From the NCBI GenBank assembly GCA_016931415.1, contig JAFGEW010000099.1, forward strand, positions 18,522 to 82,521: DNA of 64,000 bases, given 5' to 3'. Source of the stretch: Verrucomicrobiota bacterium (lineage in GTDB: Bacteria; Auribacterota; JABMQX01; JAFGEW01). Both the position numbers and the translations under genes were made by a program. The notes below the pieces were generated by a model. That model was not told the origin of the DNA. It made no database searches and was given only the letters and a program-made list of their open reading frames with translations. Positions 23,505-47,138 of this stretch are shown here, one piece after another. Position 1 is the stretch's first letter. Every line of letters starts with the position of its first letter.

Positions 23505-23920
23505 CGAACGCCCACACCTGATGCTGGAACACAATAGGCGCTGCCCCAACCCATCGACAAGCGGAATATGCCGTCCATCTCCTGCAGTCAGAGCACAGAG
23601 CCTCCTTCTGATGTTGATCTCTGAGGGCAGAGTATTGCGCCCCCCAATGGGCCATTTCCCGACAATAACCACCTGACATGTAGAGAAATGCGCTTGGGGG
23701 CCGGGCAGCCTAGATGAGACTGCGTCGCGTCTAGCGCTCGTTTTGGGGCTATCTGTGGAGATTTCGTGTTGACGCCTGACGCGGATGTGCCATGATAGCT
23801 GTGAAAGAAATCACACAGCCGCCGTTAGAGTTTTCACGCACCTCTAGACGCACAGCAAGATGGCCGCGCACCTGCCGGACGCGGTCGAAGGTGGCTCGGC
23901 AACCTGTTGGGGGGTCTGCC

Positions 23921-24493
23921 ATGTACGCGCCTGCGGTCAACGAAGCTTTCCTTGCCGAAGTGTCCTCACTCCCTGGCGGCGAACGGATTACGCAATGCAT
24001 CCAATGTGGTTCCTGTTCGGGCAGTTGTCCGACGGCGGCCTGGATGGACCATTCGCCACGCCAGATCTTCGCGTTGATCCGGTGCGGGATGCGCGACGAG
24101 GTGCTCAGTTCGAACACGCCGTGGACCTGTGCCTCCTGCTACACGTGCTACGTGCGGTGCCCCAAGGAGATCAAGATCACCGACATCATGTACGCGCTCA
24201 AACGCTTGTCGATCCGGGAGCACAAAGCGAAGCCGGAGACGAAACCCGCCCGCGTGATGGCCGAGGTTTTTGAGGGCTTGGTCAACAAGCACGGGCGCAA
24301 TTCGGAGTTTCATCTGATGCGGCGGCTGTACGGGCGCCCCTCCGCGATCACCAAGGCGCTACGCAATGCCCCGAGCGGCATGAAGCTCAAGCGCCTCGGC
24401 CGGCTGCCGTTCCGGCAGGAGAAGCTGAGCGCCAATGGCCTTATGCAGATGAAGCAGATCACTGACGCCGTCGAGAAGATGGGCGGTCTCTAG
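23921..24493 (+). CDS. hdrC: heterodisulfide reductase subunit C-like (2x[4Fe-4S] ferredoxin)
   Basis: CIQCGSCSGSCP and CASCYTCYVRCP are the HdrC/SdhC-type cluster motifs. About 190 aa. Confidence 0.75.
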   Translation: MYAPAVNEAFLAEVSSLPGGERITQCIQCGSCSGSCPTAAWMDHSPRQIFALIRCGMRDEVLSSNTPWTCASCYTCYVRCPKEIKITDIMYALKRLSIREHKAKPETKPARVMAEVFEGLVNKHGRNSEFHLMRRLYGRPSAITKALRNAPSGMKLKRLGRLPFRQEKLSANGLMQMKQITDAVEKMGGL

Positions 24494-24602
24494 CATCAAG
24501 AGGAATGACAGCACAGGATCAGCGACCCATCTCGGAGGACGGCGGACACCCAGCACGCAGAGCTTGAGACAGAACCCGGTCTTCAGACCGCGGGAGGACG
24601 CC

Positions 24603-25490
24603 ATGGGACTTGCGTACACCTACTACCCCGGATGCTCGGTCGGCGCCACAAGCCGCTGGTACGACATCTCGCTTCGGGCCGTCGCCAAGGCGCTTGACGT
24701 CGAGCTGGCCGAGCTCGAGGACTGGAACTGCTGCGGCGCCACCGCGTACATGAGCGTGCGCGAGCTCATGAGCTTCTGCATCTCGGCGCGCAACCTCGCG
24801 CTGGCCGAGCCGCTCGGCCGCGACATCGTCACCCCCTGCAACGCCTGCTTCACCGTCCTGCACAAGACCAACCGCTACTGGCACGAGGATGAGACCCTTC
24901 GCGGCAAGGTCAACGAGGCGCTCGCTGCTGCGGGCCTCCACTACAAGGGCACGGTCAAGGTGCGTCACGCGCTCGATCCATTCGTCAACGATGTCGGTCT
25001 CGATGCGATCAGTGAGAAGGTCACGAAGCCACTCGCGGGGCTGAAGGTTGCGGCGTACTACGGGTGCCAGCTCGTGCGGCCCGAGACAGGGCTCGACAGC
25101 CCCGACTACCCTGTGATCCTTGACCAGTTGCTCGCCTCGCTTGGGGCCGAGCCAGTGGACTGGGCCATGAAGGCGCGCTGCTGCGGCGCCTCGCTGATCG
25201 TGAGCCGCGAGGACGTCGCACGCGACCTGATCGCCGACATCCTCAAGTGCGCGGCCGACGCCGGGGCCGAGGCGATCACCACGCTCTGTCCGATGTGCCA
25301 CATCAACCTCGAAACGCAGATGGCCCGTATCAACAAGGACTACGGGTTTGATCTCAACTTCCCCGTGCTGTTCTTCACGCAGTTGATGGGAGTCGCGCTT
25401 GGTGTCGACGAGACCGAACTGGGTCTTGACAAGGGCTTCATCGACGCCCGCCCGCTCCTGACGCGCCACGGCATCGGGGCCAGGGCATAA
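24603..25490 (+). CDS. hdrB: heterodisulfide reductase subunit B-like (two CCG cysteine-rich domains)
   Basis: GGGAGG RBS. YYPGCS..NCCG and YYGCQ..RCCG are two CCG domains typical of the HdrB/GlpC/HdrD catalytic subunit. Confidence 0.8.
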   Translation: MGLAYTYYPGCSVGATSRWYDISLRAVAKALDVELAELEDWNCCGATAYMSVRELMSFCISARNLALAEPLGRDIVTPCNACFTVLHKTNRYWHEDETLRGKVNEALAAAGLHYKGTVKVRHALDPFVNDVGLDAISEKVTKPLAGLKVAAYYGCQLVRPETGLDSPDYPVILDQLLASLGAEPVDWAMKARCCGASLIVSREDVARDLIADILKCAADAGAEAITTLCPMCHINLETQMARINKDYGFDLNFPVLFFTQLMGVALGVDETELGLDKGFIDARPLLTRHGIGARA

Positions 25491-25508
25491 CACGGAGGGA
25501 CCCGTGCG

Positions 25509-26396
25509 ATGACTGACAAACCGGCCTGCCGCATCGGATGCTACATCTGCCATTGCGGCACCAACATCGCGCAGATGGTTGACGTCGCGGCCGTCGCGAA
25601 GTTCGCCGAGGGGGAGGCCAACGTCGTCGTGGCCCGGCACTACAAGTACATGTGCTCGGACCCGGGCCAGGAGATGATCGTCAACGACATCAAGGAGCAG
25701 AAGCTCGACCGGATCGTGGTGGCCTCCTGCTCGCCGCGCATGCACGAGCCGACGTTCCAGGGCGCGTGCCAGCGGGCGGGGCTGAACAAGTACCTGTTCG
25801 AGATGGCCAACATCCGCGAGCACTGCGCGTGGGTGCACGAGGAGCGCGCGGTGGCCACGGAGAAGGCCAAGGCGCTCGTGCGCGCGGCGTTGCGGCGGGT
25901 GGCGTTCCACGAGCCGCTCGAGGACCGCGTTGTGCCGATCCATCCGGACGCCGTGGTCATCGGTGGCGGGATCGCGGGGATCACGGCGGCGCTCAACATC
26001 GCCGACGGCGGTTCGAAGGTCTACCTCGTCGAGCGCGACCCGTCGATTGGCGGTCACATGGGCCAGTTCGACAAGACGTTCCCGACGCTCGATTGCTCGG
26101 CGTGCATCCTGACGCCCAAGATGACGTCGGTGGGCCAGCACCCGAACATCGAGTTGCTCACGTGCGCCGAGGTGACGAACGTCGACGGCTACATTGGCGC
26201 CTTCAAGGTCAAGATCAACAAGAAGGCGCGCTACGTTGACGTCGAGAAGTGTACGGGGTGTGGGGTGTGTTGGACCCTGTGCCCGTCGCGGGCCACACCG
26301 CGGCGCAAGACGATCCGGATCAAGACCAAGTTCGGCGACCAGCTCGTAAGGAGTGCGACGAATGGCAACGGAAGCCGCTCTGAAGACGGACATTGA
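25509..26396 (+). CDS. hdrA: HdrA N-terminal fragment: MvhD-like N-domain + FAD (TrxR-like) domain part 1 + first Cys motif of the inserted ferredoxin domain
   Basis: The CYICHCGTNI, YMCSDPGQ and EMANIREH HdrA N-domain blocks are present. The FAD-binding motif is VVIGGGIAGITAA and LDCSACILTPKM follows. CTGCGVCWTLCP is the first cluster motif. The reading frame then ends, 35 nt inside the next gene. Confidence 0.7.
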   Translation: MTDKPACRIGCYICHCGTNIAQMVDVAAVAKFAEGEANVVVARHYKYMCSDPGQEMIVNDIKEQKLDRIVVASCSPRMHEPTFQGACQRAGLNKYLFEMANIREHCAWVHEERAVATEKAKALVRAALRRVAFHEPLEDRVVPIHPDAVVIGGGIAGITAALNIADGGSKVYLVERDPSIGGHMGQFDKTFPTLDCSACILTPKMTSVGQHPNIELLTCAEVTNVDGYIGAFKVKINKKARYVDVEKCTGCGVCWTLCPSRATPRRKTIRIKTKFGDQLVRSATNGNGSRSEDGH

Positions 26397-26844
26397 TCTG
26401 GCGCCGGCCGAGGCGCTCATTGCCGCGTACATGGACAACCGTGAGGCGACCATTGCCTTGCTCCAGGACGTCCAGAAGCACTACGGCTACCTGCCTCGCC
26501 CGGTGCTCGAGCTGATCTCCGAGCGCCTGAACCTGCCGCACACGCAACTCTTCGCGCTCGCGACGTTCTACCGGGCGTTCAGCCTCAAGCCGCGCGGCCG
26601 CCACCTGATCAACGTCTGCACAGGCACGACGTGCCACGTACGCGGCGCCCCGATGTTGCTCGAGGCCATTGAGCGCGAGTGCAAATGCAAGGCCGGCGGG
26701 ACGACGGCCGACGGCCGGTTTACGATCGAGACGGTGAACTGCGTTGGCGCCTGCGCTTTGGCCCCTGTCATCGTCATTGACGAGGAGGCGCACGGCCGCC
26801 TGACCCAGGCCAAGCTCAAGAAGGTGCTCGACCAGTACAAGTAG
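26362..26844 (+). CDS. NuoE/HoxE/HydC-like thioredoxin-fold [2Fe-2S] subunit
   Basis: AAGGAG RBS 8 nt upstream. Cysteine pattern is C-x4-C...C-x3-C (NVCTGTTCHVRG ... VNCVGACALAP), typical of the 24-kDa NuoE family. Confidence 0.8.
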   Translation: MATEAALKTDIDLAPAEALIAAYMDNREATIALLQDVQKHYGYLPRPVLELISERLNLPHTQLFALATFYRAFSLKPRGRHLINVCTGTTCHVRGAPMLLEAIERECKCKAGGTTADGRFTIETVNCVGACALAPVIVIDEEAHGRLTQAKLKKVLDQYK

Positions 26845-26890
26845 CCGACCCGACGTTGGCGAGCGCAGTCGAAGCGAGGGAGAGACCACG

Positions 26891-28909
26891 ATGAAACTCA
26901 AGGGCCTAGCGGACCTCGACGAAGTCAAGCGAGAGGGCCTCCGCCTGCTCTATCCGGACCGGGTCAAGATTATCGTCGGCACGGCCACGTGCGGCATGGC
27001 CGCCGGCGCGGGCAAGGTTGTCGAGACGTTCCGGCGCGTGATCGACGAGCTGAAGCTCGAGGCGATCGTCGAGGAGACCGGGTGCATCGGCATGTGTCAG
27101 AAGGAGCCGATCGTCACCGTCTACCGGCCGGGCCAGACCAAACTTGTCTACCACTCGATGACGCCTAAGAAGGCCGAGGAACTCGCCCGCCAACTCGCCG
27201 AGGGCAACCCGGGCACGCAGAACGCCCTGGGCCAGATCTTCCGCGAGAAGGCGTTGCTCAGCGGCGAGGAGAGAGTGCTGGGCAAGAACGGCGGCAGCGC
27301 ACCCCTGAGCGAGGCGCCCGACCTTGACGAGATCCCCTTCTATCGCAAGCAGCTCAAGATCGCGCTGCGCAACTGCGGCTATATCGATCCGAACGACATC
27401 CGCCACTCCATCGCGCGCGGCGGCTACTACACGCTCTACAAGGTGCTCACCGAGTGGAAGCCCGACGCCGTCGTCGAGGAAATCACCAAGAGCGGCCTGC
27501 GCGGCCGGGGCGGCGGCGGGTTCCCGACGGGGCGCAAGTGGCGCTCGTGCCGCGACGCGAAAGGCCAGCATCACTACATCATCTGCAACGCCGACGAGGG
27601 TGATCCCGGGGCCTTCATGGATCGCAGCCTGCTCGAGGGCGATCCGCACAGCATGCTCGAGGGGATGATCATCGGCGCCTTCGGCATCGGCGGCGACGAA
27701 GGCTACATCTACGTCCGCAACGAGTATCCCCAGGCGATACGCAAACTCACGCGCGCCCTCGAACAGTGCCACGAATACGGCTTGCTCGGCGACAACATCT
27801 TCGGCACCGAGTTCTCGTTTGACATCACGATCAACCGCGGCGGCGGCGCGTTCGTGTGCGGCGAGTCCACCGCGCTCATGGCGTCGCTCGAAGGGCAGGT
27901 CGGCGAGCCGCGCGCCAAGTACATCCACACCGTCGAGCACGGGTTGCGCGACCAGCCGAGCTGCCTCAACAATGTTGAGACGTGGGCCAACGTGCCTGCC
28001 GTCATGGGCAAGGGCGCCGACTGGTTCACCTCGATCGGCACAGGCGGCAGCAAGGGCACGAAAGTGTTCAGCCTCGTCGGCACGATCCGGACCACGGGCC
28101 TGATCGAGGTGCCGATGGGCATCTCAATCCGCGAGGTGCTCGAGGATATCGGCGGCGGTGTGCGCGAGGGCCACCGGTTCAAAGCCGTGCAGACCGGCGG
28201 CCCTTCGGGCGGCACGATCCTCGTCGACGAACGCGGCGCCACCGTCCGCACCGAGCCCGCGACCGGCGCCTACACGGTCGGCATCATGCCGGAGAGCCTG
28301 CTCGACTTGCCGATCGACTTCGACAGCCTCACCGAGGCCGGCTCGATGATGGGCTCTGGCGGCTTGATCGTGATGGACGAGACGAGCTGCATGGTCGACG
28401 TCGCCCGCTACTTCCTCAGGTTTCTTGCCGAGGAGAGTTGCGGCAAGTGCCTCCCGTGCCGCGAAGGTCTGCGCCAGATGGTCAACATCCTCGACCGCAT
28501 CTGTGAGGGCAAGGGCGAGCACGGCGACATCGAGCTGCTTGAGGAACTCGGCAACGTGGTGATGGACACATCGCTCTGCGCGCTCGGCGGCACGGCGGCC
28601 AACCCGCCGCTGTCGACGATCCGGTATTTCCGCGACGAGTACGAGGCGCACATCTACGACAAGAACTGCCCCGCCGGTGTGTGCAAGGCGCTGATCGCCT
28701 ACGGGGTCAACGCCGAGGCGTGCACGGGTTGCGGCCTGTGCCTGAAGGCGTGTCCGACGGACGCCGTGTTCACACGCAAGCCCAAGGCGGGCGAGAGCAC
28801 GCCGAAGCTGCGCGAGGGCCGCGACCTTCACGACATTTCGCAGGACAAGTGCATCAAGTGCGGGGCCTGTTTCGAAGCCTGCACGTTCGACGCCGTGGTC
28901 AAGGAGTAG
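26891..28909 (+). CDS. NuoF/HydB/HndC-like NAD(P)H-binding FMN flavoprotein with N-terminal thioredoxin-like domain and C-terminal 2x[4Fe-4S] ferredoxin
   Basis: 672 aa. The FMN/NADH site is GRGGGGFPTGRKW. ESCGKCLPCREG is the N3-type cluster motif. The C-terminal ferredoxin motifs are CTGCGLCLKACP and CIKCGACFEAC. Confidence 0.8.
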   Translation: MKLKGLADLDEVKREGLRLLYPDRVKIIVGTATCGMAAGAGKVVETFRRVIDELKLEAIVEETGCIGMCQKEPIVTVYRPGQTKLVYHSMTPKKAEELARQLAEGNPGTQNALGQIFREKALLSGEERVLGKNGGSAPLSEAPDLDEIPFYRKQLKIALRNCGYIDPNDIRHSIARGGYYTLYKVLTEWKPDAVVEEITKSGLRGRGGGGFPTGRKWRSCRDAKGQHHYIICNADEGDPGAFMDRSLLEGDPHSMLEGMIIGAFGIGGDEGYIYVRNEYPQAIRKLTRALEQCHEYGLLGDNIFGTEFSFDITINRGGGAFVCGESTALMASLEGQVGEPRAKYIHTVEHGLRDQPSCLNNVETWANVPAVMGKGADWFTSIGTGGSKGTKVFSLVGTIRTTGLIEVPMGISIREVLEDIGGGVREGHRFKAVQTGGPSGGTILVDERGATVRTEPATGAYTVGIMPESLLDLPIDFDSLTEAGSMMGSGGLIVMDETSCMVDVARYFLRFLAEESCGKCLPCREGLRQMVNILDRICEGKGEHGDIELLEELGNVVMDTSLCALGGTAANPPLSTIRYFRDEYEAHIYDKNCPAGVCKALIAYGVNAEACTGCGLCLKACPTDAVFTRKPKAGESTPKLREGRDLHDISQDKCIKCGACFEACTFDAVVKE

Positions 28910-28913
28910 CTCC

Positions 28914-30671
28914 ATGCCTGACGAGACGGTCACATTGACGATCGACGGCAACAAGATCGAGGTCGAGCCGGGCATCTACGTGCTCGAAGCCGCCCAACGG
29001 CTCGGCATCTGGATTCCGACGCTATGCAACTACAAGGGCCTGACACCGTACGGCGCCTGCCGGCTCTGCACGGTCGAGGCGACGAAGGGATCGCGCACTC
29101 GCCTTGTCACCTCGTGCAACTACCCGGTGAGCGACGGCCTTGTCGTGCGCACCGACACCGAGCGTGTGCGCACGGCGCGGCGCATCCTCGTCGAGCTGCT
29201 CTGTGCGCGCCACGGCAAGGTGGGGATCGTCAAAGAGCTTGCCGCCAACGTCGGTGTGACCAAGCCGCGCTTCGGCGAGGGCGACGAGGCGTGTATCCTG
29301 TGCGGCCTGTGCGTCCGCGCGTGTGCCGAAATGGCGCGCGCCTACGCGATCGGGTTCTCGCAGCGCGGTACGGAGAAGATCGTTACCACGCCGTTTGACG
29401 AGCCGAGCGAGGTGTGCATCAACTGCGGTGCCTGCGCCAAGGTCTGCCCGACGGGCGCGATCTATATCGAGGGCGCCGAGGAGATCCGTCACGACGAGCT
29501 CATGCTCGGCCCCGACGCGGCGATCTCGGTGCCGACGATGCAGGCGGTGCCCAACGTGCCCGCGCTCGACGCGACACGCTGCCTTCACTTCCAGCGCGAC
29601 GGGTGCGGCATCTGCGCGCCCAACTGCCCGGCGAACGCGATCGACTACTCGATGCAGGACGAGGAGATCGAGGTTGAGTGCGGCACGATGGTCGTCGCCA
29701 CCGGCTTCCAGACCTTCGACCCCAGTCCGATGGAGCAGTACGGCTACGGCCGCTTCCCGAACGTGATCACGTCGCTCGAGTTCGAGCGGCTCTCGAACGC
29801 GGCGGGCCCGACGGGCGGCGAGATTGTGCTGCGCAACGGCGAGCGGCCGAAGTCGGTTGCCATCCTGCACTGCATCGGCAGCCGCGACGAGCACTACCAC
29901 AAGTACTGCTCGCGGGTGTGCTGCATGTACTCGCTCAAGTTCGCCCACCTCGTGCGCGAGAAGGTCGGCGCTCGGGTCTACGAGCTCTACATCGACATGC
30001 GCAGCTTCGGCAAAGGCTACGAGGAGTTCTACGACCGGCTGCTCCAGGAGGGGGCGCTGTTCATCCGGGGCAAAGGCGCCGAGGTGACCGACTTCGCCAT
30101 GCGGCCCGAGGAGGAAGGCAAGCTCATCGTCAAGTGCGAGGATACGCTCGCCGGCGTGCAGCGCCGCCTCCCGGTCGACATGGTGATCCTGTCGGTGGCG
30201 CTCGAGGCGCGTAGCGACTCGAAGCAGGTCGAGCGCCTCTTCAAGTTGTGCGCGAGCGAGGACGGCTTCTTCCTTGAGCGGCATCCGAAGCTCGCGCCCG
30301 TCGAGACGACGAGCGACGGCGTGTTCCTTGCGGGCTGTTGCCAAAGCCCGAAGGACATCCCGGACACCGTGGCCCAGGGCAGCGCGGCGGCGGCGCAGGC
30401 CTTGAGCCTCATCCTGCGCGGCGAAACCACGTTGAGCGGCGCGCATGCCGAGATCAACCCCGAGCTGTGCAGCGGCTGCCGCATCTGCAACGAGCTGTGC
30501 CCGTACAACGCCATCACGTATGACGCCGAGAAGAAGGTGAGCGAGGTCAATGCGAGCCTGTGCAAGGCGTGCGGGACGTGCGTGGCGGCGTGTCCGAGCG
30601 GGGCGATCAAGGGCAAGCACTTCACGAAGCAGCAGATCCTTGCCGAGCTGGAAGGAGTGTTGGCGAAATGA
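28914..30671 (+). CDS. hdrA: fusion protein: NuoG/HoxU/HydA-N-like Fe-S domain (2Fe-2S + 2x4Fe-4S) fused to HdrA C-terminal part (inserted-ferredoxin second motif, TrxR-like FAD domain part 2, C-terminal 2x[4Fe-4S] ferredoxin)
   Basis: The N-terminal 2Fe-2S pattern is LCNYKGLTPYGACRLC..C, followed by CILCGLCVRAC and CINCGACAKVCP. HdrA-specific blocks follow: CLHFQRDGCGICAPNCP, MVVATGFQTFDP, CSRVCCMYSLK, VFLAGCCQSPKDIPDTVAQGSAAA. The C-terminal motifs are CSGCRICNELCP and CKACGTCVAACP. Confidence 0.75.
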   Translation: MPDETVTLTIDGNKIEVEPGIYVLEAAQRLGIWIPTLCNYKGLTPYGACRLCTVEATKGSRTRLVTSCNYPVSDGLVVRTDTERVRTARRILVELLCARHGKVGIVKELAANVGVTKPRFGEGDEACILCGLCVRACAEMARAYAIGFSQRGTEKIVTTPFDEPSEVCINCGACAKVCPTGAIYIEGAEEIRHDELMLGPDAAISVPTMQAVPNVPALDATRCLHFQRDGCGICAPNCPANAIDYSMQDEEIEVECGTMVVATGFQTFDPSPMEQYGYGRFPNVITSLEFERLSNAAGPTGGEIVLRNGERPKSVAILHCIGSRDEHYHKYCSRVCCMYSLKFAHLVREKVGARVYELYIDMRSFGKGYEEFYDRLLQEGALFIRGKGAEVTDFAMRPEEEGKLIVKCEDTLAGVQRRLPVDMVILSVALEARSDSKQVERLFKLCASEDGFFLERHPKLAPVETTSDGVFLAGCCQSPKDIPDTVAQGSAAAAQALSLILRGETTLSGAHAEINPELCSGCRICNELCPYNAITYDAEKKVSEVNASLCKACGTCVAACPSGAIKGKHFTKQQILAELEGVLAK

Positions 30672-31132
30672 GCAAGTTCGAACCGGTCATCGTCGGCTTT
30701 CTGTGCAACTGGTGCAGCTACACGGGCGCGGACCTTGCCGGCACGGCCCGCCGGCACTACCTGCCCAACCTGCGCATCATCCGCGTCATGTGCAGCGGGC
30801 GCGTCGAGCCGGGTTTTGTCGTCCAGGCGCTGCAGGACGGGGCCGACGGCGTGCTCGTGGCGGGATGCCATCCCGGCGACTGCCACTATATCGAGGGCAA
30901 CTACAAGACGCTGCGCCGCATGACGCTGCTCAAGAAGATGCTCGAGCAGTTCGGCATCGAGCCTGAGCGGGTGCGGCTCGAATGGATCAGCGCGAGCGAG
31001 GCGAACGACTTCGTCCGGGTCGTCAACGAGATGACCGAGGAGATTCGGGCGCTCGGGCCGCTCAAGCTCGGCCACTTCGAGGACGCTGCCGACGCCGAGC
31101 ACGCCGGGAAAGAAGCGGCCACGCCCGCATAG
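30668..31132 (+). CDS. mvhD: methyl-viologen-reducing hydrogenase delta subunit (MvhD/FlpD family)
   Basis: VGFLCNWCSY..MCSGRVEP..AGCHPGDCHY are the MvhD signature motifs. The ATG overlaps the upstream stop (ATGA). Confidence 0.8.
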   Translation: MSKFEPVIVGFLCNWCSYTGADLAGTARRHYLPNLRIIRVMCSGRVEPGFVVQALQDGADGVLVAGCHPGDCHYIEGNYKTLRRMTLLKKMLEQFGIEPERVRLEWISASEANDFVRVVNEMTEEIRALGPLKLGHFEDAADAEHAGKEAATPA

Positions 31133-31156
31133 ACACCGCGATTCGAGGAGAAAGCC

Positions 31157-32152
31157 GTGGGCAAGCCCAAAGTCGCCTTCTACTGGTGCGCCAGTTGCGG
31201 CGGGTGCGAGGAAGCGGTCGTCGATCTGGCCGAGGATATCCTCAAGGTCGTCGATGCCGTTGACATCGTGCTCTGGCCCGTGGCGCTCGACTTCAAGCTC
31301 AAGGACGTCAAGGCGATGAAGGACGGCGAGATTGCCGTAAGCTTCATCAACGGGGCGGTGCGCACCGAGGAGCAGGAGGAGTGGGTCAAGCTGCTGCGCA
31401 GGAAGTCGGGGTTGGTCGTGGCCTTCGGCGCGTGCGCGCACCTAGGCGGCGTGCCCGGGCTGGCGAACTTCTTTGACCGCAAGGCGATCTTCGATCGCGC
31501 CTACGACAAGGTTCCGAGCGCCGACAACCCGAACAAGACCCGGCCGCAGACGAGGACCGAGGTGCCCGAGGGCGTGCTCACGCTGCCCGCCTTCTTCAAC
31601 ACGGTGCGGACGCTCGACCAGGTCATTGACGTGGATTATTACCTGCCCGGCTGCGCGCCGCCGCCGGACCTGATCATGGGAGCCGTCACGGCGATCCTCA
31701 AAGGCGAGCTGCCGCCCAAGGGCACGGTACTCGCTCCGACGAAGGCGCTGTGCGACACCTGTCCGCTCAAGGAATCGAAACCCGAGAAGATGCTCATCCA
31801 CGAGTTCAAACGCGTGGCGACGAGTACGCCGGACCCGACGGTGTGCTATCTCGCGCAAGGCTACGTCTGTCTCGGCCCGGCGACCCGCTCGGGCTGCGGC
31901 GAACGCTGCATCAACGCCAACATGACGTGCCGCGGCTGCTTCGGGCCGACGCCCGAAGCCATTGACCTGGGCGTGAAGGCCCTGTCGGCCATGGCGTCCA
32001 TCCTCGACACGAATGATGCCGACGAGATCACGCGGATCATGGATACCATGCCCGACCCGGCCGGCGTCTTCTACATGTACTGCTTGCCCTCGTCCGTGCT
32101 GCGGCGTCGCAAGGTGGAAGCCATTCCGAGAACGGAGAGCGCTCATGTCTAA
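31157..32152 (+). CDS. mvhG: [NiFe] hydrogenase small subunit, group 3c (MvhG-like)
   Basis: GTG start with a GAGGAG RBS. The N-terminal proximal-cluster cysteines are KVAFYWCASCGGCEE. Multiple distal-cluster cysteines follow (CDTCP, CLGPATRSGCGERCINANMTCRGCFGP). Confidence 0.8.
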   Translation: MGKPKVAFYWCASCGGCEEAVVDLAEDILKVVDAVDIVLWPVALDFKLKDVKAMKDGEIAVSFINGAVRTEEQEEWVKLLRRKSGLVVAFGACAHLGGVPGLANFFDRKAIFDRAYDKVPSADNPNKTRPQTRTEVPEGVLTLPAFFNTVRTLDQVIDVDYYLPGCAPPPDLIMGAVTAILKGELPPKGTVLAPTKALCDTCPLKESKPEKMLIHEFKRVATSTPDPTVCYLAQGYVCLGPATRSGCGERCINANMTCRGCFGPTPEAIDLGVKALSAMASILDTNDADEITRIMDTMPDPAGVFYMYCLPSSVLRRRKVEAIPRTESAHV

Positions 32153-33605
32153 GCAGATCACCATTGACCCGATCACGCGGCTCGAGGGCCACGGCAAGAT
32201 CGAGATATTCCTCGACGATGCAGGCAACGTGGCCAACGCCTACCTGCAGATTCCCGAGCTGCGCGGGTTCGAGCAGTTCGCCGTCGGCCGGCTCGTCGAG
32301 GAGATGCCGCGCATTACCCCGAAGATCTGCGGCGTGTGCCCGACGACGCACCACATGTGTTCGGGCAAGACCGTTGACGCCGTGTATCACGTCGACCCGC
32401 CGGTGCCGGCCAAGAAGATCCGCGAGCTGATCAACTCAGCGTTCATGTTCGAGGACCACACGCTGCACTTCTACTTCCTCGGCGGGCCGGACTTCGTCAT
32501 GGGGCCCGATGCGCCGGCGGCGACGCGCAACATCCTCGGCGTCATCGGTAAGGTGGGGCTCGAGATCGCGGGCCAGGTCATCGCCATCCGTCGCCGCACG
32601 CGCAAGGTGATCAGCGACCTCGGCGGACGCGTCATCCACCCGGTGTGCAACGTGCCGGGCGGTGTCTCGAAGGGGGTCACCAAGGAGCTGCAGGAAGAGT
32701 ACATCCAGACCGCGAAGGACGCCGTCGAGTTCGCCAGGTTCTCGCTCAAGCTCTTCGACGACGTCGTGCTGGCGAACAAGGGTTACGTCGACGTCATCGT
32801 CGGCGACGTCTACAAGCACCAGACCTACTACATGGGCCTGGTGGACAAAAACAACAAGGTCAGCTTCTACGACGGCGACGTGCGGGTCGTGACGCCGACG
32901 GGCGAGCAGTTCGCCAAGTTCAAGCCGAACGAGTATCTCGACCATATCGCCGAGCACGTCGAGCCGTGGAGCTACATCAAGTTCCCGTTCCTCAAGAAGG
33001 TCGGCTGGAAGGGCTTCGTCGACGGCAAGGACAGCGGTGTCTACCGCGTTGCGCCGCTCGCGCGGCTCAACGCGTCCGACGGTATGGCCACGCCCCAGGC
33101 GCAGGAGGCGTACGAGAAGATGTTCTCGGTCCTCGGCGGCAAGCCGGCGCACAACACGCTTGCCTACCACTGGGCGCGCCTCGTCGAGCTGCTCTACGCG
33201 GCCGAGCGTCTCCTCGAGCTGGCGCAAGATCCTGACATTCTCGATCCGAACATCCGCACGGTGCCGACCGAGACACCGTCCGAGGGCGTAGCTGTCGTCG
33301 AGGCGCCGCGTGGCACGCTCTATCACCACTACAAGACCGACGAGCGCGGCGTCGTGCAGGAAGCCAACCTCATCGTCGCGACGGTGAACAACTCGGCGGC
33401 GATCGCCATGTCGGTCGCGCGCGCCGCAAAGGGGCTCATCAAGAACGGCAAGGTCAACGACGGTCTGCTCAACATGGTCGAGATGGCCTTCCGCGCCTAT
33501 GACCCCTGCATGGCGTGCGCCACACACGCTTTGGGCAAGACGCCGCTCATTGTCACGCTGCGCGATCCGAGCGGCGACGCGATCCAAGTGCTGCGCCGCG
33601 ACTGA
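32145..33605 (+). CDS. mvhA: [NiFe] hydrogenase large subunit, group 3c (MvhA-like)
   Basis: RLEGHGKI and RICGVCPTTHH (L1 Ni ligands) are present. The C-terminal motif DPCMACATH is followed by a ~25-aa cleavable tail. The ATG overlaps the mvhG stop by 8 nt. Confidence 0.85.
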   Translation: MSKQITIDPITRLEGHGKIEIFLDDAGNVANAYLQIPELRGFEQFAVGRLVEEMPRITPKICGVCPTTHHMCSGKTVDAVYHVDPPVPAKKIRELINSAFMFEDHTLHFYFLGGPDFVMGPDAPAATRNILGVIGKVGLEIAGQVIAIRRRTRKVISDLGGRVIHPVCNVPGGVSKGVTKELQEEYIQTAKDAVEFARFSLKLFDDVVLANKGYVDVIVGDVYKHQTYYMGLVDKNNKVSFYDGDVRVVTPTGEQFAKFKPNEYLDHIAEHVEPWSYIKFPFLKKVGWKGFVDGKDSGVYRVAPLARLNASDGMATPQAQEAYEKMFSVLGGKPAHNTLAYHWARLVELLYAAERLLELAQDPDILDPNIRTVPTETPSEGVAVVEAPRGTLYHHYKTDERGVVQEANLIVATVNNSAAIAMSVARAAKGLIKNGKVNDGLLNMVEMAFRAYDPCMACATHALGKTPLIVTLRDPSGDAIQVLRRD

Positions 33606-33629: not shown

Positions 33630-33669
33630 CCGCCCTGTGCCCGTCCGAGGGGTGCAGGGCGGCTTTTCC
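33630..33669 (+). terminator. putative intrinsic terminator after the hdr-mvh operon
   Basis: Stem CCGCCCTG ... CAGGGCGG with a structured 17-nt loop, followed by CTTTTCC, a weak T-tract. Confidence 0.45.
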
Positions 33670-33769
33670 TCAAGGGACACCCGTCCGGACGCATTCGCGG
33701 AACTCGCTAAGCATCTTAACTGTTACTGTAAGGAATGCCGGAAGTCCGACTGAGCAGAGGAGCACTCTG

Positions 33770-34354
33770 ATGTGGTCTCGGCTGGTTCGTGTGGGTCTGC
33801 TTGCAGTGGTTGTTCTGGTCACACCTGCCTGCGCCGCCTTGGTTCGGCGGGCGGCGGCATTCTCCCCCTTGCTCGCCCATGGCGAAGGCGGCGAAGACGG
33901 CTTGGTGGAGATGCTCGGCGAGCAGCACGTTGCCGTCATTCATTTCCCGATTGCGCTCACCATTGCAGCCGCGCTGGCGGAGCTGCTCGCCCTCATCACG
34001 CGGCGGCCTGCGTTCACGCACGCGGCTCGCTTCTGCATCGTGATCGCGGCGCTCGGCGCCATCGCCGCCGTCATCACCGGCTGGATCGCGTTCGGGGAGG
34101 AAACCGAAGGCATGACGGCAGCAGCTATGAAGTCGAATCCCCTGACCCGGAATCTTCTGATCCATCGTTCGCTCGGTATTGCGGCGGCCATCGTGATCGT
34201 GGCAGGGGCCGTTCTGTCCGAGGTTGGCCACATCGGCCGGAACAAGTGGGTGATGCTGGCATCCCGGATCGCCTTGCTCGCGGCCGTTGTCCTCGTAGTT
34301 CTTACAGGCTACTACGGTGGGAAATATGTGTTCCCCGAAATGCCACCGGCTTAG
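33770..34354 (+). CDS. hypothetical polytopic membrane protein (4-5 TM) at the head of the copper-efflux cluster
   Basis: 194 aa with a hydrophobic profile and conserved His residues. No recognisable motif. Confidence 0.5.
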   Translation: MWSRLVRVGLLAVVVLVTPACAALVRRAAAFSPLLAHGEGGEDGLVEMLGEQHVAVIHFPIALTIAAALAELLALITRRPAFTHAARFCIVIAALGAIAAVITGWIAFGEETEGMTAAAMKSNPLTRNLLIHRSLGIAAAIVIVAGAVLSEVGHIGRNKWVMLASRIALLAAVVLVVLTGYYGGKYVFPEMPPA

Positions 34355-35762
34355 CAGACGTGCCACGACCGTGCTTCGTGCTGTTGTGCTCGCCTTGATC
34401 GCGGTTGGCGGATCGTCGTGCGCAGGCCGGCGGGAGACGCTGTCTGACGGAAGGCCGGTGCCCGCGAACGGCCCGATGCCGGCGTCGCCGATATCGGCGC
34501 CGGCCATGTTGCCCGACGAGCCGACGATTGATGACTACATCGCCTACGCGGAGCAGAACAACCCAGCGATACGTGCCGCGCGGGAGCGGTGGCATGCGGC
34601 GCTGGAACGCGTCCGGCAGGCGCGCTCGCTGCCTGACCCGAGGCTGAGTTTCGGCGAGTTCGTCGAGTCGGTCGAGACGCGCGTCGGGCCGCAGGAGTGG
34701 AACGCGACGTTGTCGCAAACCTTCCCCTGGTTTGGCACGCTCGGGCTGCGCGGCGACGCTGCCCGCTCTGGCGCCGCGATGGCCGCACAACAGGTCGAGG
34801 CGCTGCGCCTCAAGATCATCTACCAACTCAAACACGACTACTACGAGTACTACTACCTCGCCCGTGCCGTCGGCGTGAGCGAGGAGAACGTGCAGCTTGT
34901 CGCCGATCTCGAGGAGGTCGCCCGCACCGCCTACGCTGCGGGCCGGGTGCCGCAAGCGGCGGTGATCAAGGCCCAGGTCGAGCTCGAGAAGCTCCGCGAC
35001 CGCCTCCGCACACTTAGCGAGCAACGCATTCCCGTCGCAGCCAAGATCAACGCTCTCCTCGGGCGGGAAGCCGATGCGCCGCTGCCGTGGCCGCAGGTAT
35101 TGCCCGACGATGACGAAATCCTGCCGGCCGCTGAACTCCTCAACCAGCTCCGTACAGCGAACCCCGAACTCCGTGCCCTGGCCCATGCGGCGAACAGGGC
35201 GAGCCGCGCCGAGGCACTCGCGCGCAAGGCGCGCTACCCCGACCTGACGCTCGGCGTCACCTACGTCTCGACCGGTGACGCCGTCATGCCCAACGTCGCC
35301 GGCAGCGGCAAGGACCCCGTCATGGTCATGTTGTCGGTCAACCTGCCCGTCTGGGGCGGCAGGAACCGCGCCGTCATCCGCGAGGCCCGGGCGCAGCTCG
35401 AGTCGGCCATCGCCGAACGCGGCGACCGCGAGAACATGCTGGTCGCCGAGCTCGAGATGGCGCTGTTCAAGTACAACGACGCGGTGCGCAAGATCACCCT
35501 GTACCGCGACACGCTGGTTCCCCAGGCCAAGCAGAGCCTCAACGTGACCCAGCAGGCTTTCACGGCCGGCACGGTGGCCTTCCTTGACCTGATCGACGCC
35601 CAACGCACGCTGCTCGAGATCCAGCTCATGGCCGAACGGGCGCTCGTGGACCGCGCTCAGCAGCGCGCCGCACTCGATATGCTGACCGGGCGCGGGCTGT
35701 CGAATGGCGCGGGAAACACTGCGGTCGGGAATCAACTTGGTGCTGATGGTGTTGAGAAATGA
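34317..35762 (+). CDS. cusC: outer-membrane efflux factor (TolC/CusC/CzcC family), lipoprotein
   Basis: The signal peptide plus lipobox reads LIAVGGSSC. Two repeats of the OEP domain with coiled-coil alpha-helical content are present. It sits upstream of the cusBA-like genes. Confidence 0.75.
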   Translation: MGNMCSPKCHRLSRRATTVLRAVVLALIAVGGSSCAGRRETLSDGRPVPANGPMPASPISAPAMLPDEPTIDDYIAYAEQNNPAIRAARERWHAALERVRQARSLPDPRLSFGEFVESVETRVGPQEWNATLSQTFPWFGTLGLRGDAARSGAAMAAQQVEALRLKIIYQLKHDYYEYYYLARAVGVSEENVQLVADLEEVARTAYAAGRVPQAAVIKAQVELEKLRDRLRTLSEQRIPVAAKINALLGREADAPLPWPQVLPDDDEILPAAELLNQLRTANPELRALAHAANRASRAEALARKARYPDLTLGVTYVSTGDAVMPNVAGSGKDPVMVMLSVNLPVWGGRNRAVIREARAQLESAIAERGDRENMLVAELEMALFKYNDAVRKITLYRDTLVPQAKQSLNVTQQAFTAGTVAFLDLIDAQRTLLEIQLMAERALVDRAQQRAALDMLTGRGLSNGAGNTAVGNQLGADGVEK

Positions 35763-35818
35763 ATGGACTCATCGTGAATGTACACACGCGATCAGCACCC
35801 AGGCCGAGGAGAGTGCTC

Positions 35819-36625
35819 ATGAAGACCATGTTCGCCGCGCTTGTCGCCGCGGCCCTTATAGGCATTGTCGTGACGCCTGCGTTCCCCGAAGGCGAGGCCG
35901 AGGTCAGAGGGCAGACAATCTGCCCAGTCATGGGCGGCGTCGTCGACAAGCAGTACTTCGCCGACCACAACGGGAAGCGTGTCTACTTCTGCTGCCCGGC
36001 GTGCGCGCCCGAGTTCGCCAAAGATCCGGAGAAGTACATCAAGAAGCTCGAAGACGAAGGCATCACGCTCGATCAGACGCCGGACGATGGCCAGGGCGCC
36101 GATGAGGCGGCAGGCCACACCGGGCAAGTCTGGATATGTTCCATGCACGCGCAGGTCGAGCAGCCAGAGGCGGGCAATTGCCCCATGTGTGGCATGGACT
36201 TGGTCTTGCGCGAGGCCGAGGGAACGACCGAGACTGTCACGACGCAGACAGCCTGCCCCAATTCGGGCAAGCCGATTAACAAGAACCACTTCGCCGACTA
36301 CAACGGGAAGCGCGTCTACTTCTGCGGTCCCGGCTGCGTCAAGGCCTTCAAGGCCGATCCCGAGCCGTACATGAAGAGGCTCGCCGACGCCGGCGTCGTA
36401 CTCGAAGATGCGCCCAGGGAAGTGAAAACGCAGACGATGTGCCCCGTGCTGACGAACCAGAAGATCAACAAGAGCATCTTCGCTGACCACGAGGGCAAGC
36501 GCGTCTACTTCTGCTGCCGCAGTTGCCAGCGCGCGTTCGGGAAGAACCCAGCCAAGTACGTGAAGCAGCTCGAGGACCAGGGCATCACGCTCGAGCGTGT
36601 GTCCCAGACCTCCCACTCGCACTGA
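35819..36625 (+). CDS. periplasmic metal-binding protein with three YHS/TRASH-like domains and one CusB-type heavy-metal-binding (HMBD, C-x-M-H...C-P-x-C-G-M) domain
   Basis: Signal peptide present. The unit (I/M)CPV..G..(V/I)(D/N)K..FADHNGKRVYFC(C/G)..C...F..(D/N)P..Y(I/M)K(K/R)L occurs three times. VWICSMHAQVEQPEAGNCPMCGMDLV, the HMBD, sits in the middle. Confidence 0.65.
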   Translation: MKTMFAALVAAALIGIVVTPAFPEGEAEVRGQTICPVMGGVVDKQYFADHNGKRVYFCCPACAPEFAKDPEKYIKKLEDEGITLDQTPDDGQGADEAAGHTGQVWICSMHAQVEQPEAGNCPMCGMDLVLREAEGTTETVTTQTACPNSGKPINKNHFADYNGKRVYFCGPGCVKAFKADPEPYMKRLADAGVVLEDAPREVKTQTMCPVLTNQKINKSIFADHEGKRVYFCCRSCQRAFGKNPAKYVKQLEDQGITLERVSQTSHSH

Positions 36626-43723: not shown

Positions 43724-43778
43724 TGTTTGCTCCGTTTGTGAGACGTATCGGCCGGGTTCTGCCTGGCCGCTGGCATAC

Positions 43779-44606: not shown

Positions 44607-44612
44607 GCCTGG

Positions 44613-47136: not shown

Positions 47137-47138
47137 GA

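Follow-up and report, generated by a model that had tools for sequence, protein, structure and literature searches.

What kind of enzyme is encoded by a bacterial operon in which genes of an NADH-type flavoprotein module lie inside a split hdrA gene, with hdrC and hdrB before them and an Mvh-type [NiFe] hydrogenase behind? We addressed this question in a 64,000-nucleotide stretch of DNA (the window) from contig JAFGEW010000099.1, assigned to a Verrucomicrobiota bacterium. An earlier sequence-only reading had described the locus as a ten-gene operon; its coordinates, gene order and gene assignments are retained here, but the count is nine, as in that reading's own list. All nine products match their own families strongly, and domain content, split point, cluster-ligand conservation, gene order and module-linking fusions are reported below as observed.

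Operon layout

The operon spans positions 23,921 to 33,605 of the plus strand, on which all features described here lie. Its nine genes follow the order hdrC, hdrB, hdrA N-part, nuoE-like, nuoF-like, a NuoG/BfuA-like domain fused to the HdrA C-part, mvhD, mvhG and mvhA. As claimed earlier, they are co-directional and tightly linked, with intergenic distances from -44 to about +110 nt, and a GGAG-type ribosome-binding site precedes all nine starts. Upstream of hdrC, at 23,769-23,796, a consensus scan gave a promoter-like site (TTGACG, a 16-nt spacer and CATGAT, with a TG extension), which is weak evidence, two sites having been found against 1.2 expected in shuffles. Just 3' of mvhA, at 33,630-33,672, lies a strong, GC-rich terminator-like hairpin: 10 of its 13 base pairs are G-C, and the T-tract CTTTTCCT comes next.

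HdrC, HdrB and the split HdrA

Domain scans and alignments to solved structures both bear out the earlier claim that HdrCB are present and that HdrA is truly split. The hdrC gene (23,921-24,493; 190 aa) carries two CxxCxxCxxxCP motifs for 2x[4Fe-4S]; its product matches Pfam Fer4_8, Fer4_17 and Fer4_9, and NCBIfam CoB_CoM_SS_C at 2e-24, under that family's cut-off. The 295-aa HdrB (24,603-25,490; alternative TTG start at 24,564) has two complete CCG motifs, C11...C43C44...C79xxC82 and C155...C193C194...C229xxC232, matched by Pfam CCG in two stretches (6e-28) and by TIGR03288 HdrB (3e-67), and is where the disulfide is predicted to be reduced. Conserved neighbouring genes were examined for a hint of the HdrBC substrate and none was found.

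The HdrA N-part (25,509-26,396; 295 aa) contains the N-terminal Fe-S domain, the first half of an FAD domain of the thioredoxin-reductase-like type (motifs GGGIAG and TFPTLDCSACILTPK) and motif 1 of the inserted ferredoxin domain, CxxCxxCxxxCP at C248-C258, after which only a short conserved tail follows. Pfam assigns it FAD/Pyr_redox_2 and one Fer4. It covers positions 1-257 of the NCBIfam HdrA2 profile (1e-114), and its residues 8-260 align to residues 13-266 of solved HdrA 8rvu (4e-102). The remainder is found in the fusion protein, whose residues 166-583 cover HdrA2 profile positions 240-641 and whose residues 156-583 align to 8rvu residues 242-653. Judged by these alignments, the two pieces jointly span solved HdrA collinearly with nothing missing.

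The break falls inside the inserted ferredoxin domain, between motif 1 and the linker. As the cassette is inserted inside hdrA, HdrA would be made as two polypeptides that need reassembly. All four motifs flanking the junction are invariant, namely the last motif of the N-part (across 23 split HdrA-N proteins) and the C127, C168 and C223 motifs of the fusion protein, which argues that the clusters are retained. Modelling of the rejoined HdrA gave a pLDDT of 32, which we count against the single complex proposed below.

The flavoprotein module and the fusion protein

The nuoE/hydC/bfuC-like gene (26,362-26,844; alternative GTG start at 26,353) overlaps the 3' end of the hdrA N-part by ~35 nt and encodes a thioredoxin-like [2Fe-2S] subunit (Pfam 2Fe-2S_thioredx 1e-49; NCBIfam NuoE and HoxE ~1e-42). 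The nuoF/hydB/bfuB-like gene (26,891-28,909) encodes a flavoprotein of 672 aa, assigned by Pfam (Complex1_51K 3e-42, NADH_4Fe-4S 1e-33 and a C-terminal Fer4 pair) and by conservation of its motifs across loci. Besides sites for FMN/NADH and for an N3-type [4Fe-4S] cluster, it has a CPAGVC linker motif, a ferredoxin domain with 2x[4Fe-4S] at the C-terminus and a Trx-like domain at the N-terminus. The last three are among the features by which Schut et al. 2022 define bifurcating BfuB (PMC9304861), most of which the present protein carries; its Trx-like domain has only three of the four usual cysteines in this lineage, a point counted against the proposed role. The best solved relatives are B subunits of bifurcating enzymes (7t2r_B at 4e-194, 7q4v_B, 8a6t_B and 9n5u_B), whereas Nqo1 of complex I reaches only 2e-107. 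These comparisons place the NuoE/NuoF pair with the HydC/HydB type, nearest to bifurcating HydB/BfuB and not to complex I, in agreement with the earlier assignment of the 672-aa protein, with its Trx-like N-domain and C-terminal ferredoxin, to the HydB type.

The fusion protein (28,914-30,671; 585 aa) consists of a BfuA/NuoG-like domain (residues 1 to ~185) and the HdrA C-part (~190 to 585). The former has a [2Fe-2S] site at C38/C49/C52/C68 and two 4Fe-4S motifs at C127-C137 and C168-C178, and the latter comprises the linker, motif 2 of the inserted ferredoxin domain (C223/C231/C234/C238), the remaining FAD domain and the C-terminal ferredoxin domain; every cysteine listed is invariant among 80 homologues. 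The Pfam scan matched Fer2_4 and Fer4 and did not find the His-ligated cluster family NADH-G_4Fe-4S_3, the only absentee among the families that had been expected across the operon. With Foldseek the C-part retrieved HdrA 8rvu_A and 5odc_A (4e-33) and the N-part retrieved BfuA of WOR-Bfu (9mqx_A, rmsd 1.8 Å over 183 columns). The previously proposed NuoG-like fusion to the HdrA C-part thus stands, with the refinement that its closer likeness is this short BfuA, a minimal Fe-S domain with one 2Fe-2S and two 4Fe-4S clusters and without the His-ligated one.

An AF2 model of the fusion protein alone had a mean pLDDT of 77.6, with 80-95 in the BfuA-like N-domain and poor values (35-70) in the linker 188-215 and in the orphan half-domain 220-260. 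Poor modelling of the half-domain is consistent with the need for a partner from HdrA-N; a flexible linker would look alike.

The hydrogenase genes

The mvhD gene (30,668-31,132) starts with an ATG that overlaps the fusion gene's stop codon. Its product, a 154-aa [2Fe-2S] adaptor, matches Pfam FlpD (6e-57) and solved MvhD 5odc_D and 8rvu_F (~5e-51). MvhG (31,157-32,152; Pfam Oxidored_q6 4e-23, NCBIfam VhuG 1e-59) aligns over its full length to solved MvhG 5odc_E at 3e-61, but to the small subunit of NiFe-HydABCSL at only 3e-18. The large subunit MvhA (32,145-33,605; 486 aa) has an N-terminal CGVCxxxH and a C-terminal DPCMACATH, the tail after which would be removed on maturation; it matches Pfam NiFeSe_Hases (3e-33), NCBIfam VhuA (1e-127) and the solved subunits 7t2r_D (2e-119) and MvhA 5odc_F (6e-113). 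MvhDGA are canonical, as the sequence-only reading had supposed, and since MvhG and MvhD are full-length Mvh types, the usual route of H2 input is retained.

Distribution and known relatives

The design is common in metagenomes and kept across many uncultivated bacterial phyla. The full nine-gene order was found in MAGs labelled Verrucomicrobiota, Zixibacteria, Ignavibacteria, Armatimonadetes, Bryobacterales and Alphaproteobacteria, and the order interrupted by additional genes recurs in MAGs of Calditrichaeota, Aminicenantes and others. A NuoG-like::HdrA-C gene beside NuoEF-like genes is thereby present in many independent assemblies. The BfuA-like::HdrA-C fusion forms more than 120 clusters at 90% identity, and within the same operon order other lineages have HdrA-N fused in frame to NuoE. 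Longer variants of the operon keep DRTGG, HATPase, HydS-like and PHP accessory genes adjoining nuoE, which lends support to the earlier idea that HdrA stands in place of the H-cluster domain of HydABC.

The closest known systems are MvhAGD-HdrABC, the Bfu enzymes, class II benzoyl-CoA reductase and 'type III' HdrA. No description of an Mvh-Hdr design with an NADH module in a split hdrA was found in the literature searched, in line with the earlier reading, which did not recognise this gene order as a described system; the last two are partial precedents. Class II benzoyl-CoA reductase is the only structurally characterised enzyme combining both modules (bioRxiv 10.64898/2026.04.10.717634). Archaeal 'type III' HdrA, encoded beside mvhADG, has an NAD(H)-binding GltD domain inserted so that it adjoins the inserted ferredoxin domain (PMC12054007).

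Proposed electron flow

The gene order kept across lineages and the HdrA-N::NuoE fusions make a single complex very likely. We infer one soluble multi-subunit assembly of the nine products, a bacterial MvhAGD-HdrABC-like enzyme with a built-in HydBC/Bfu-type core, together with its stoichiometry, substrates, direction and wiring; the wiring that follows is the likeliest one, and we give it an even chance. H2 would be oxidised at MvhA and electrons would pass through MvhG and MvhD to the FAD of HdrA, where they would bifurcate. The high-potential electron would travel by way of HdrC to HdrB, whose two non-cubane clusters would pass it on to a disulfide, which in a bacterium is probably not CoM-S-S-CoB.

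In HdrA and BamE alike, low-potential electrons leave through the inserted ferredoxin domain (PMC12054007; bioRxiv 10.64898/2026.04.10.717634). In the canonical enzyme this domain passes them to ferredoxin, whereas here it holds the cassette, and the BfuA-like chain, with its one 2Fe-2S and two 4Fe-4S motifs, is covalently attached next to this arm. Sequence adjacency suggests that the clusters of the chain lie near those of the domain. The low-potential electron would accordingly enter the re-formed domain, run along the BfuA-like chain and reach the FMN/Fe-S core of BfuBC, which would reduce NAD+ and, by way of the ferredoxin domain at the C-terminus of the NuoF-like subunit, probably also ferredoxin. 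The single flavin-based bifurcating FAD proposed earlier would be joined by the FMN/Fe-S core of BfuBC as a second site capable of bifurcation. With exergonic disulfide reduction as its driving force, such an enzyme would use H2 to make NADH and reduced ferredoxin, and would be useful at low H2 pressure. Against this scheme, feeding electrons of ~-500 mV into an NAD+-reducing module that normally receives ~-400 mV appears wasteful of energy, unless ferredoxin is also reduced.

Alternative explanations

The same complex may run in reverse or be re-routed, a possibility we take seriously while holding it rather unlikely. The HydBC/Bfu-like module would then be the input, confurcating NADH and reduced ferredoxin to mid-potential electrons that reach the HdrA FAD. 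There they would bifurcate, the high-potential branch reducing the HdrBC disulfide and the low-potential branch reducing protons at MvhAG with evolution of H2; or H2 and NADH/ferredoxin could be interchangeable donors for the disulfide. The HydS-like genes in longer operon variants favour this, as such sensory/regulatory genes are known from operons for H2-evolving HydABC. The class II reductase also speaks against the proposed flow, since its HydBC-like BamGH has been shown to be a confurcating input to the HdrA-type FAD (bioRxiv 10.64898/2026.04.10.717634), the role that Schut et al. proposed for Bam-Bfu (PMC9304861), and for 'type III' HdrA the authors suggested that NADH donates electrons at mid potential and H2 is produced, or that the reaction runs the other way (PMC12054007). 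However, electrons in the reductase enter through the C-terminal ferredoxin domain and an MvhD-like adaptor and not through the low-potential arm (bioRxiv 10.64898/2026.04.10.717634), whereas the Bfu-like chain here is fused at the low-potential output and the canonical input arrangement is kept in MvhD, MvhG and MvhA. Moreover, Greening et al. state that every group 3c hydrogenase studied biochemically works under cellular conditions as an H2 oxidiser (PMC11216029).

Operons can group enzymes that are functionally linked and physically separate, and the locus might thus encode an Mvh-Hdr enzyme with a harmlessly split HdrA beside an independent NADH:ferredoxin oxidoreductase-like NuoEF, the HdrA-C fusion being meaningless. 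We consider this improbable, as the BfuA-like domain is covalently joined to the HdrA C-part in every member, HdrA-N::NuoE fusions exist elsewhere, the order is conserved across phyla, and the cassette sits inside a gene, in a cluster-binding domain with invariant ligands on both sides.

That a mis-assembly has joined separate hdr, nuo-like and mvh loci, or that an insertion has made hdrA a pseudogene, is suggested only by the odd look of the split gene and is effectively refuted: none of the nine ORFs is broken, they have high GC3 and ribosome-binding sites, and chance and mis-assembly are excluded by the uniform base composition of the region, by collinearity with the closest related contig (L001), whose similarity ends at the mvhA stop codon (33,603), and by dozens of independent assemblies that show the same order, with protein identities of 40-93%. 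The locus is a real nine-gene operon.

The window contains, in addition, genes for a plain Hox-type NAD-linked hydrogenase, which argues that the present enzyme is not merely a second NAD-reducing hydrogenase.

Organization of the operon

The operon (23921-33605, plus strand) consists of nine co-directional ORFs, and not ten as counted in the sequence-only reading; of the domain families expected there, Pfam found all but NADH-G_4Fe-4S_3, which is absent. It starts with hdrC (23921-24493, +), encoding a protein with two 4Fe-4S motifs (Fer4, Pfam), and hdrB (24603-25490, +; CCG 6e-28 in Pfam, TIGR03288 3e-67 in NCBIfam), whose product has two CCG stretches with complete cysteine spacing in both halves, according to Pfam and motif positions. 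These are followed by an N-terminal fragment of HdrA (25509-26396, +; HdrA2 profile positions 1-257, 1e-114), a NuoE-like [2Fe-2S] protein with the CxxxxC...CxxxC pattern (26362-26844, +; 2Fe-2S_thioredx 1e-49) and a NuoF-like flavoprotein of 672 aa (26891-28909, +; Complex1_51K 3e-42, NADH_4Fe-4S 1e-33). The match of Pfam to the N-terminal Trx-like domain of the latter is weak, and its C-terminal 2x4Fe-4S domain (Fer4 pair) is present. The next gene (28914-30671, +) encodes a 585-aa protein, called here the fusion, with Fer2_4 and two Fer4 motifs within residues 1-~185 and HdrA2 profile positions 240-641 at residues 166-583 (1e-130). The hydrogenase genes close the operon: mvhD (30668-31132, +; FlpD 6e-57, solved 5odc_D 6e-51), mvhG for a three-cluster small subunit (31157-32152, +; solved 5odc_E 3e-61, full length) and mvhA (32145-33605, +; VhuA profile 1e-127, solved MvhA 5odc_F 6e-113), the last carrying the motifs KICGVCPTTHH (N-terminal) and DPCMACATH (C-terminal).

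Spacing between the genes ranges from a 44-nt overlap up to a gap of ~110 nt. A GGAG-type ribosome-binding site precedes every start, a promoter-like site lies upstream of hdrC, and directly 3' of mvhA there is a GC-rich hairpin of 13 bp (33630-33662) followed by a T-tract. Base composition is even across the region, with GC3 of 0.78-0.91 in all operon ORFs retained by the GC3 scan. The neighbours are unrelated to the operon: a histidine kinase on the opposite strand upstream, a DUF2231 membrane protein and Cus-type metal efflux genes downstream.

The split HdrA and the fusion protein

Residues 8-260 of the HdrA N-part match residues 13-266 of the solved HdrA 8rvu (4e-102), and the matched stretch takes in the conserved 'KKxRYVDxxKCTGCGxC...CP', i.e. 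the first CxxCxxCxxxCP (motif 1) of the inserted ferredoxin domain, the arm which in the canonical enzyme hands low-potential electrons to ferredoxin. Residues 156-583 of the fusion match HdrA residues 242-653 (5e-108). Starting near residue 190, the matched part comprises the linker (LGPDAAISVPTMQAVP, compared with GMTKAVYIPFPQAVP of HdrA), the second motif (C223/C231/C234/C238) and the C-terminal ferredoxin domain, together with the remainder of the FAD domain. Taken together, these alignments place the cut in hdrA inside the inserted ferredoxin domain, after motif 1 and ahead of its linker. All four HdrA domains are there, collinear with the solved HdrA and spread over two genes 2.5 kb apart, and the gap is filled by the nuoE-like and nuoF-like genes and a domain resembling BfuA. 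BfuA, BfuB and BfuC are the NuoG-, NuoF- and NuoE-like subunits of HydABC-type bifurcating enzymes.

The BfuA-like domain of the fusion (residues 5-188) matches the 247-aa BfuA of WOR-Bfu (9mqx_A, 8e-37) and has one 2Fe-2S site (C38/C49/C52/C68) and two 4Fe-4S motifs (C127-C137 and C168-C178). The cysteines of these three clusters and of the second HdrA motif are invariant in 80 homologues of the fusion, and the 23 split HdrA-N proteins compared all keep motif 1 unchanged.

In the AF2 model of the fusion alone (mean pLDDT 77.6) the BfuA-like domain scored 80-95, linker 188-215 was disordered (<50) and the orphan ferredoxin half-domain reached 60-70. The weakly modelled orphan half fits a half-domain in need of HdrA-N, though a flexible linker would look alike. 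Foldseek paired the C-part with HdrA (8rvu_A and 5odc_A, 4e-33, 43-44% identity) and the N-part with BfuA 9mqx_A (rmsd 1.8 A over 183 columns, 42% identity) and also with NiFe-HydA 7t30_A. HdrA rejoined in silico (HdrA-N 1-262 with fusion 187-585) gave an uninformative pLDDT of 32 in AF2 run without alignment.

The inserted NAD(H)/ferredoxin module

The best solved relative of the NuoF-like protein is 7t2r_B, the NiFe-HydB of Acetomicrobium mobile (4e-194). The other closest solved relatives are also B subunits of bifurcating enzymes (NfnB 9bov_B, HydB 7q4v_B and 8a6t_B, NfnB 9n5u_B, Thermotoga maritima HydB 7p5h_B), and Nqo1 of complex I reached 2e-107 only. Bifurcating BfuB is defined by extra clusters in its C-terminal, linker and N-terminal parts, and 'Type 2' BfuA by having three clusters only (Schut et al. 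2022, PMC9304861). The flavin-site motif of the window protein is CNADEGDPGAFMDR; a C-terminal 2x[4Fe-4S] domain and the linker motif CPAGVC are there too, both of them kept across related loci. Its Trx-like domain (residues 25-102, 26891-27200) holds three of the four usual [2Fe-2S] cysteines, with 'GTATCG' as against 'CxGTGC'; the same three are found in the related loci L017, L018, L019, L020, L023 and L047, and most other loci have four. The BfuA-like part of the fusion resembles Type 2, with three clusters and without the His-ligated one.

In L012, L015, L017 and L020 the NuoF-like ORFs are ~1000 aa long and a C-terminal GltD/NfnB-like NAD(P)H/FAD domain replaces the 2x[4Fe-4S] domain, a hint of still other variants that have two nucleotide sites.

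Distribution and variants of the operon

For the comparison of operons all nine window proteins were searched by tblastn against species-representative genomes. NuoEF-like genes next to a BfuA::HdrA-C fusion, a co-occurrence that the sequence-only reading had proposed to look for, turned up in many metagenome-assembled genomes (MAGs). The fusion has more than 120 full-length homologues (90%-identity clusters) with 57-93% identity, from Planctomycetes, Dehalococcoidia, KSB1, Eisenbacteria, Zixibacteria and other groups, annotated merely as 'heterodisulfide reductase subunit A' or '4Fe-4S protein'. When clustered at 50%, the top 150 representatives include about a dozen with the BfuA::HdrA-C architecture. 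A search for cultured hosts among members of the fusion clusters gave MAG names only (Zixibacteriota, Planctomycetota).

The nearest public relative is the Verrucomicrobiota MAG contig L001, which is collinear at ~80-83% nucleotide identity, the likeness ending at the mvhA stop codon. The complete nine-gene order occurs there and in MAGs labelled Zixibacteria (L002), Ignavibacteria (L003), Armatimonadetes (L008) and Alphaproteobacteria (L028). Other loci depart from it to a varying degree: L005 (Ignavibacteriaceae) gave no mvhD match by tblastn, and in L019 (Verrucomicrobiota) ~6 kb separate the fusion gene from mvhDGA. Related forms are also present in two archaeal MAGs (L038, L047), and the unsplit order hdrCBA-mvhDGA in many Chloroflexota and other MAGs (e.g. 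L042, L043, L046). Desulfobacterales-type and other deltaproteobacterial MAGs (L017, L018, L020, L023) have hdrA'-nuoE-nuoF-fusion-mvhD without hydrogenase, mvhD being followed by an FrhB/FdhB-like gene, more HdrA-like genes and hdrCB. From these hydrogenase-less relatives the split-HdrA/Bfu core appears to serve other electron partners.

In another group additional genes lie between hdrA' and nuoE, the order being otherwise equal: L009 (Calditrichaeota), L010 (Zixiibacteriota), L011 (Eubacteriales), L013 (Bryobacterales), L014 (Ignavibacteriaceae), and L027 and L066 (Aminicenantes). The contigs of L009 and L010 end inside the mvh genes, and L012 (Aminicenantes) has the extra genes and lacks adjoining mvhDGA. 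In L066 this stretch (3458-8140) encodes a DRTGG protein, two HATPase proteins (HATPase_c_2 and HATPase_c), a HydS-like [FeFe]-hydrogenase-like protein of 458 aa (Fe_hyd_lg_C and FeS), a PHP protein and a small Trx-like ferredoxin; the extra stretches of L009-L014 and L027 are similar. We regard them as a putative H2-sensing and regulatory set inside a [NiFe]-hydrogenase operon. Such a DRTGG/HATPase/HydS-like/PHP/Trx-ferredoxin set accompanies bifurcating HydABC operons, and its presence in L066 therefore supports an origin of the inserted cassette from a HydABC-type operon.

In the window, hdrA-N and nuoE overlap by ~35 nt in different reading frames. In other lineages the two are joined in frame as HdrA-N::NuoE proteins of 426-445 aa (P0171, P0183, P0184, P0190, P0215), and contig L082, with P0171 at 1926-3263, has the order hdrC, hdrB, HdrA-N::NuoE, NuoF-like, BfuA::HdrA-C. 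A rough neighbour-joining tree of HdrA C-parts, built without support values, spreads the split forms over at least five clades, with unsplit forms branching in between.

The flanks of 27 related loci were scanned for a conserved neighbour pointing to the HdrBC substrate and none was found, the recurring genes being only those for a HycI maturation protease and two-component regulators, plus a second group-3-like hydrogenase in Aminicenantes-type loci. The HycI-type protease gene comes straight after mvhA, as the tenth gene, in many related loci, among them L002 (14642-15151), L003, L008 and L028; in the window no such gene adjoins mvhA, and the terminator hairpin lies at that spot.

Proposed electron flow

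Covalent fusions, invariant ligands and conserved gene order together make it very likely that the products form a single complex, the function of which we only infer. MvhG and MvhD are full-length and of canonical Mvh types, so the usual path from H2 through MvhD to the HdrA FAD would be retained. Low-potential electrons leave HdrA (PMC12054007), and likewise the HdrA-like BamE (10.64898/2026.04.10.717634), by way of the inserted ferredoxin domain, and since the BfuA-like chain is fused exactly at this arm, they would here be expected to enter its clusters. Their most likely route would lead from the FAD through the BfuA-like clusters to the FMN/Fe-S core of BfuBC, which would reduce NAD+ and probably ferredoxin also, while the high-potential electrons would pass to a disulfide at HdrB, both CCG motifs of which are intact. 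With potentials of -414 mV for H2, ~-280 mV for NAD(H), ~-500 mV for ferredoxin and -140 mV for heterodisulfide (Schut et al., PMC9304861), such coupling would permit H2 to yield NADH and reduced ferredoxin even where its pressure is low.

The main rival explanation reverses the role of the Bfu module: NADH and reduced ferredoxin would be the input, and H2 would be evolved or would serve as an alternative donor. Such a direction has a precedent in class II benzoyl-CoA reductase (BCRII), which takes NADH and reduced ferredoxin as input (10.64898/2026.04.10.717634), and the same scheme was suggested by the authors for the GltD-inserted type III HdrA next to mvhADG (PMC12054007). The position of the BfuA-like chain bears on the first of these: BamI of BCRII is a separate subunit feeding the C-terminal ferredoxin domain, whereas in the window operon it is the inserted ferredoxin domain to which the BfuA-like domain is joined, and with so different an attachment site the wiring is probably different from that of BCRII.

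Output from HdrA into the Bfu core, the opposite order to BCRII, would make the operon the representative of a widespread 'tandem bifurcation' hydrogenase class, in which H2 oxidation pulled by a disulfide yields NADH and very low-potential ferredoxin, and the second enzyme type after BCRII to combine an HdrA FAD with a Bfu FMN/Fe-S site. We offer this reading, of the operon as a class of its own, as a tentative proposal that is less likely than not to hold.

Comparison with known systems

With MvhAGD-HdrABC of methanogens (group 3c, 5ODC, 9SW2) the operon has all six subunit types and their cofactor motifs in common, and the order hdrC-hdrB-hdrA...mvhD-mvhG-mvhA equals that of the unsplit operons in Chloroflexota and other bacterial MAGs. 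It differs in that HdrA is made of two polypeptides and NuoE-like, NuoF-like and BfuA-like units are added at the split. A canonical single-polypeptide HdrA is thereby excluded, as the domains are divided over two genes, the second of which also encodes the BfuA-like part. The Hdr proteins of the operon stay below the cut-offs of the NCBIfam equivalogs of methanogen HdrA, HdrB and HdrC. The low-potential arm probably no longer donates directly to free ferredoxin, and CoM-S-S-CoB is unlikely as the disulfide substrate in a bacterium.

Type III (HdrL-like) HdrA has a GltD (NfnB-like) NAD(P)H domain beside the inserted ferredoxin domain and is sometimes encoded next to mvhADG (PMC12054007). There an NAD(H)-reactive module occupies the equal HdrA site, and the published hypothesis is likewise that the ferredoxin site was re-purposed for NAD(H) (PMC12054007). 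That module, however, is one GltD domain in one polypeptide, whereas the window has a three-part HydBC/BfuA cassette with FMN and, by motif count, up to ~8 extra clusters, and the gene is split. Identity with type III is rejected, Pfam having found a GltD-type domain in neither HdrA piece nor in the other operon genes. NADH oxidation is reportedly tied to HdrABC in bacteria by FlxABCD-HdrABC, the NADH dehydrogenase/heterodisulfide reductase of Desulfovibrio (Ramos et al. 2015, cited in PMC6129605), which is said to have NAD(P)H subunits unrelated to those of the window, no hydrogenase and an unsplit HdrA.

BCRII (BamBCDEFGHI) is the only described complex which joins a HydBC-type part (BamGHI) to an HdrA-type FAD (BamE), MvhD-like BamF and HdrBC-like BamD (10.64898/2026.04.10.717634). 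The window operon is without the tungsten subunits BamBC and has a [NiFe] hydrogenase; its HdrA is split, while BamE is duplicated and fused. No AOR-family gene lies in or adjoins the operon and its HdrA is not duplicated, hence it is not a BCRII.

From the Bfu family (NiFe-HydABCSL of A. mobile, 7T2R; WOR-Bfu, 9MQX) the operon has the BfuC-like and short Type-2 BfuA-like parts and a NuoF-like subunit closest to bifurcating BfuB, with most of its features and three of the four Trx-domain cysteines, and the best solved match of MvhA is the large subunit of NiFe-Bfu. What differs is the partner of the BfuA-like part, here a whole second bifurcating enzyme, HdrABC, with a hydrogenase joined via MvhD. 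According to the main text of the Bfu survey, Bam-Bfu is the sole type that is Hdr- or Mvh-linked or contains HdrA (Schut et al. 2022, PMC9304861). NiFe-HydABCSL proper was rejected, because the third-substrate module of the operon is an entire Hdr-Mvh enzyme. An NAD-reducing Hox hydrogenase (group 3d, HoxEFUYH) was likewise dismissed, NADH-G_4Fe-4S_3 being absent from the fusion and MvhD and HdrABC being present, and the readings of the operon as a mis-assembly or a pseudogene were both rejected in view of the nine intact ORFs, the even composition and the recurrence of the gene order in dozens of independent assemblies.

Novelty and significance

All parts of the operon are known, and it is their combination and the site of insertion that set it apart. 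We found no account of the nine-gene operon in the openly accessible full-text literature, in agreement with the sequence-only reading, in which its gene order was not recognised as a described system; a mention may exist elsewhere. Units of nuoEFG-mvhD-hdrA were noted in the Desulfotignum genome paper. Castelle et al. 2013 gave a Zixibacteria Mvh/Hdr cluster, the HdrA of which may be split or not, as plain MvhADG/HdrABC with the NADH module unmentioned. The occurrence of two bifurcation modules within one complex was described as previously unreported in the 2026 BCRII preprint (10.64898/2026.04.10.717634). The split-HdrA operon is real, widespread and apparently unnamed.

Mvh-Hdr operons occur in many non-methanogenic bacteria and archaea, and their substrates and role are standing questions. 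With an NAD(H)/ferredoxin module hard-wired to HdrA at a defined site, a definite hypothesis on what accepts the low-potential electrons can be framed and tested. If true, the tandem-bifurcation reading could account for Mvh-Hdr function in many non-methanogenic bacterial phyla and would give a second natural case, commoner than BCRII, of two bifurcation-capable modules in one enzyme. The split within the ferredoxin domain, the HdrA-N::NuoE and NuoF::GltD proteins and the HydS-like long forms constitute a natural series for studying redox-module recombination. With vague gene labels and plain Mvh/Hdr reporting, H2/NADH coupling may be misread when the metabolism of Zixibacteria, Ignavibacteria, Aminicenantes, Verrucomicrobiota and others is reconstructed.

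Other genes in the window

Downstream of the operon there is a Cus-type heavy-metal efflux block (34317-43020, +), composed of an outer-membrane factor, a YHS/HMBD protein, a membrane fusion protein with HMBD and a 1396-aa RND pump, and then a phosphate block on the minus strand (43052-51905) with PhoU, PstB, permease, phosphate-binding protein, porin O/P and PhoR/PhoB-like genes. The two blocks are ordinary surroundings and have no relation to the operon.

Apart from the operon, the window has a second gene cluster for a soluble [NiFe] hydrogenase, of Hox (group 3d) type, at 3398-7954 (+). It encodes a NuoE::NuoF fusion of 604 aa (3398-5212, +), a HoxU-like protein (5222-5932, +; Fer2_4, NADH-G_4Fe-4S_3, Fer4_Nqo3), a small subunit (within 5668-6489, +; Oxidored_q6) and a large subunit (6374-7954, +), so the organism already has a plain NAD-linked hydrogenase.
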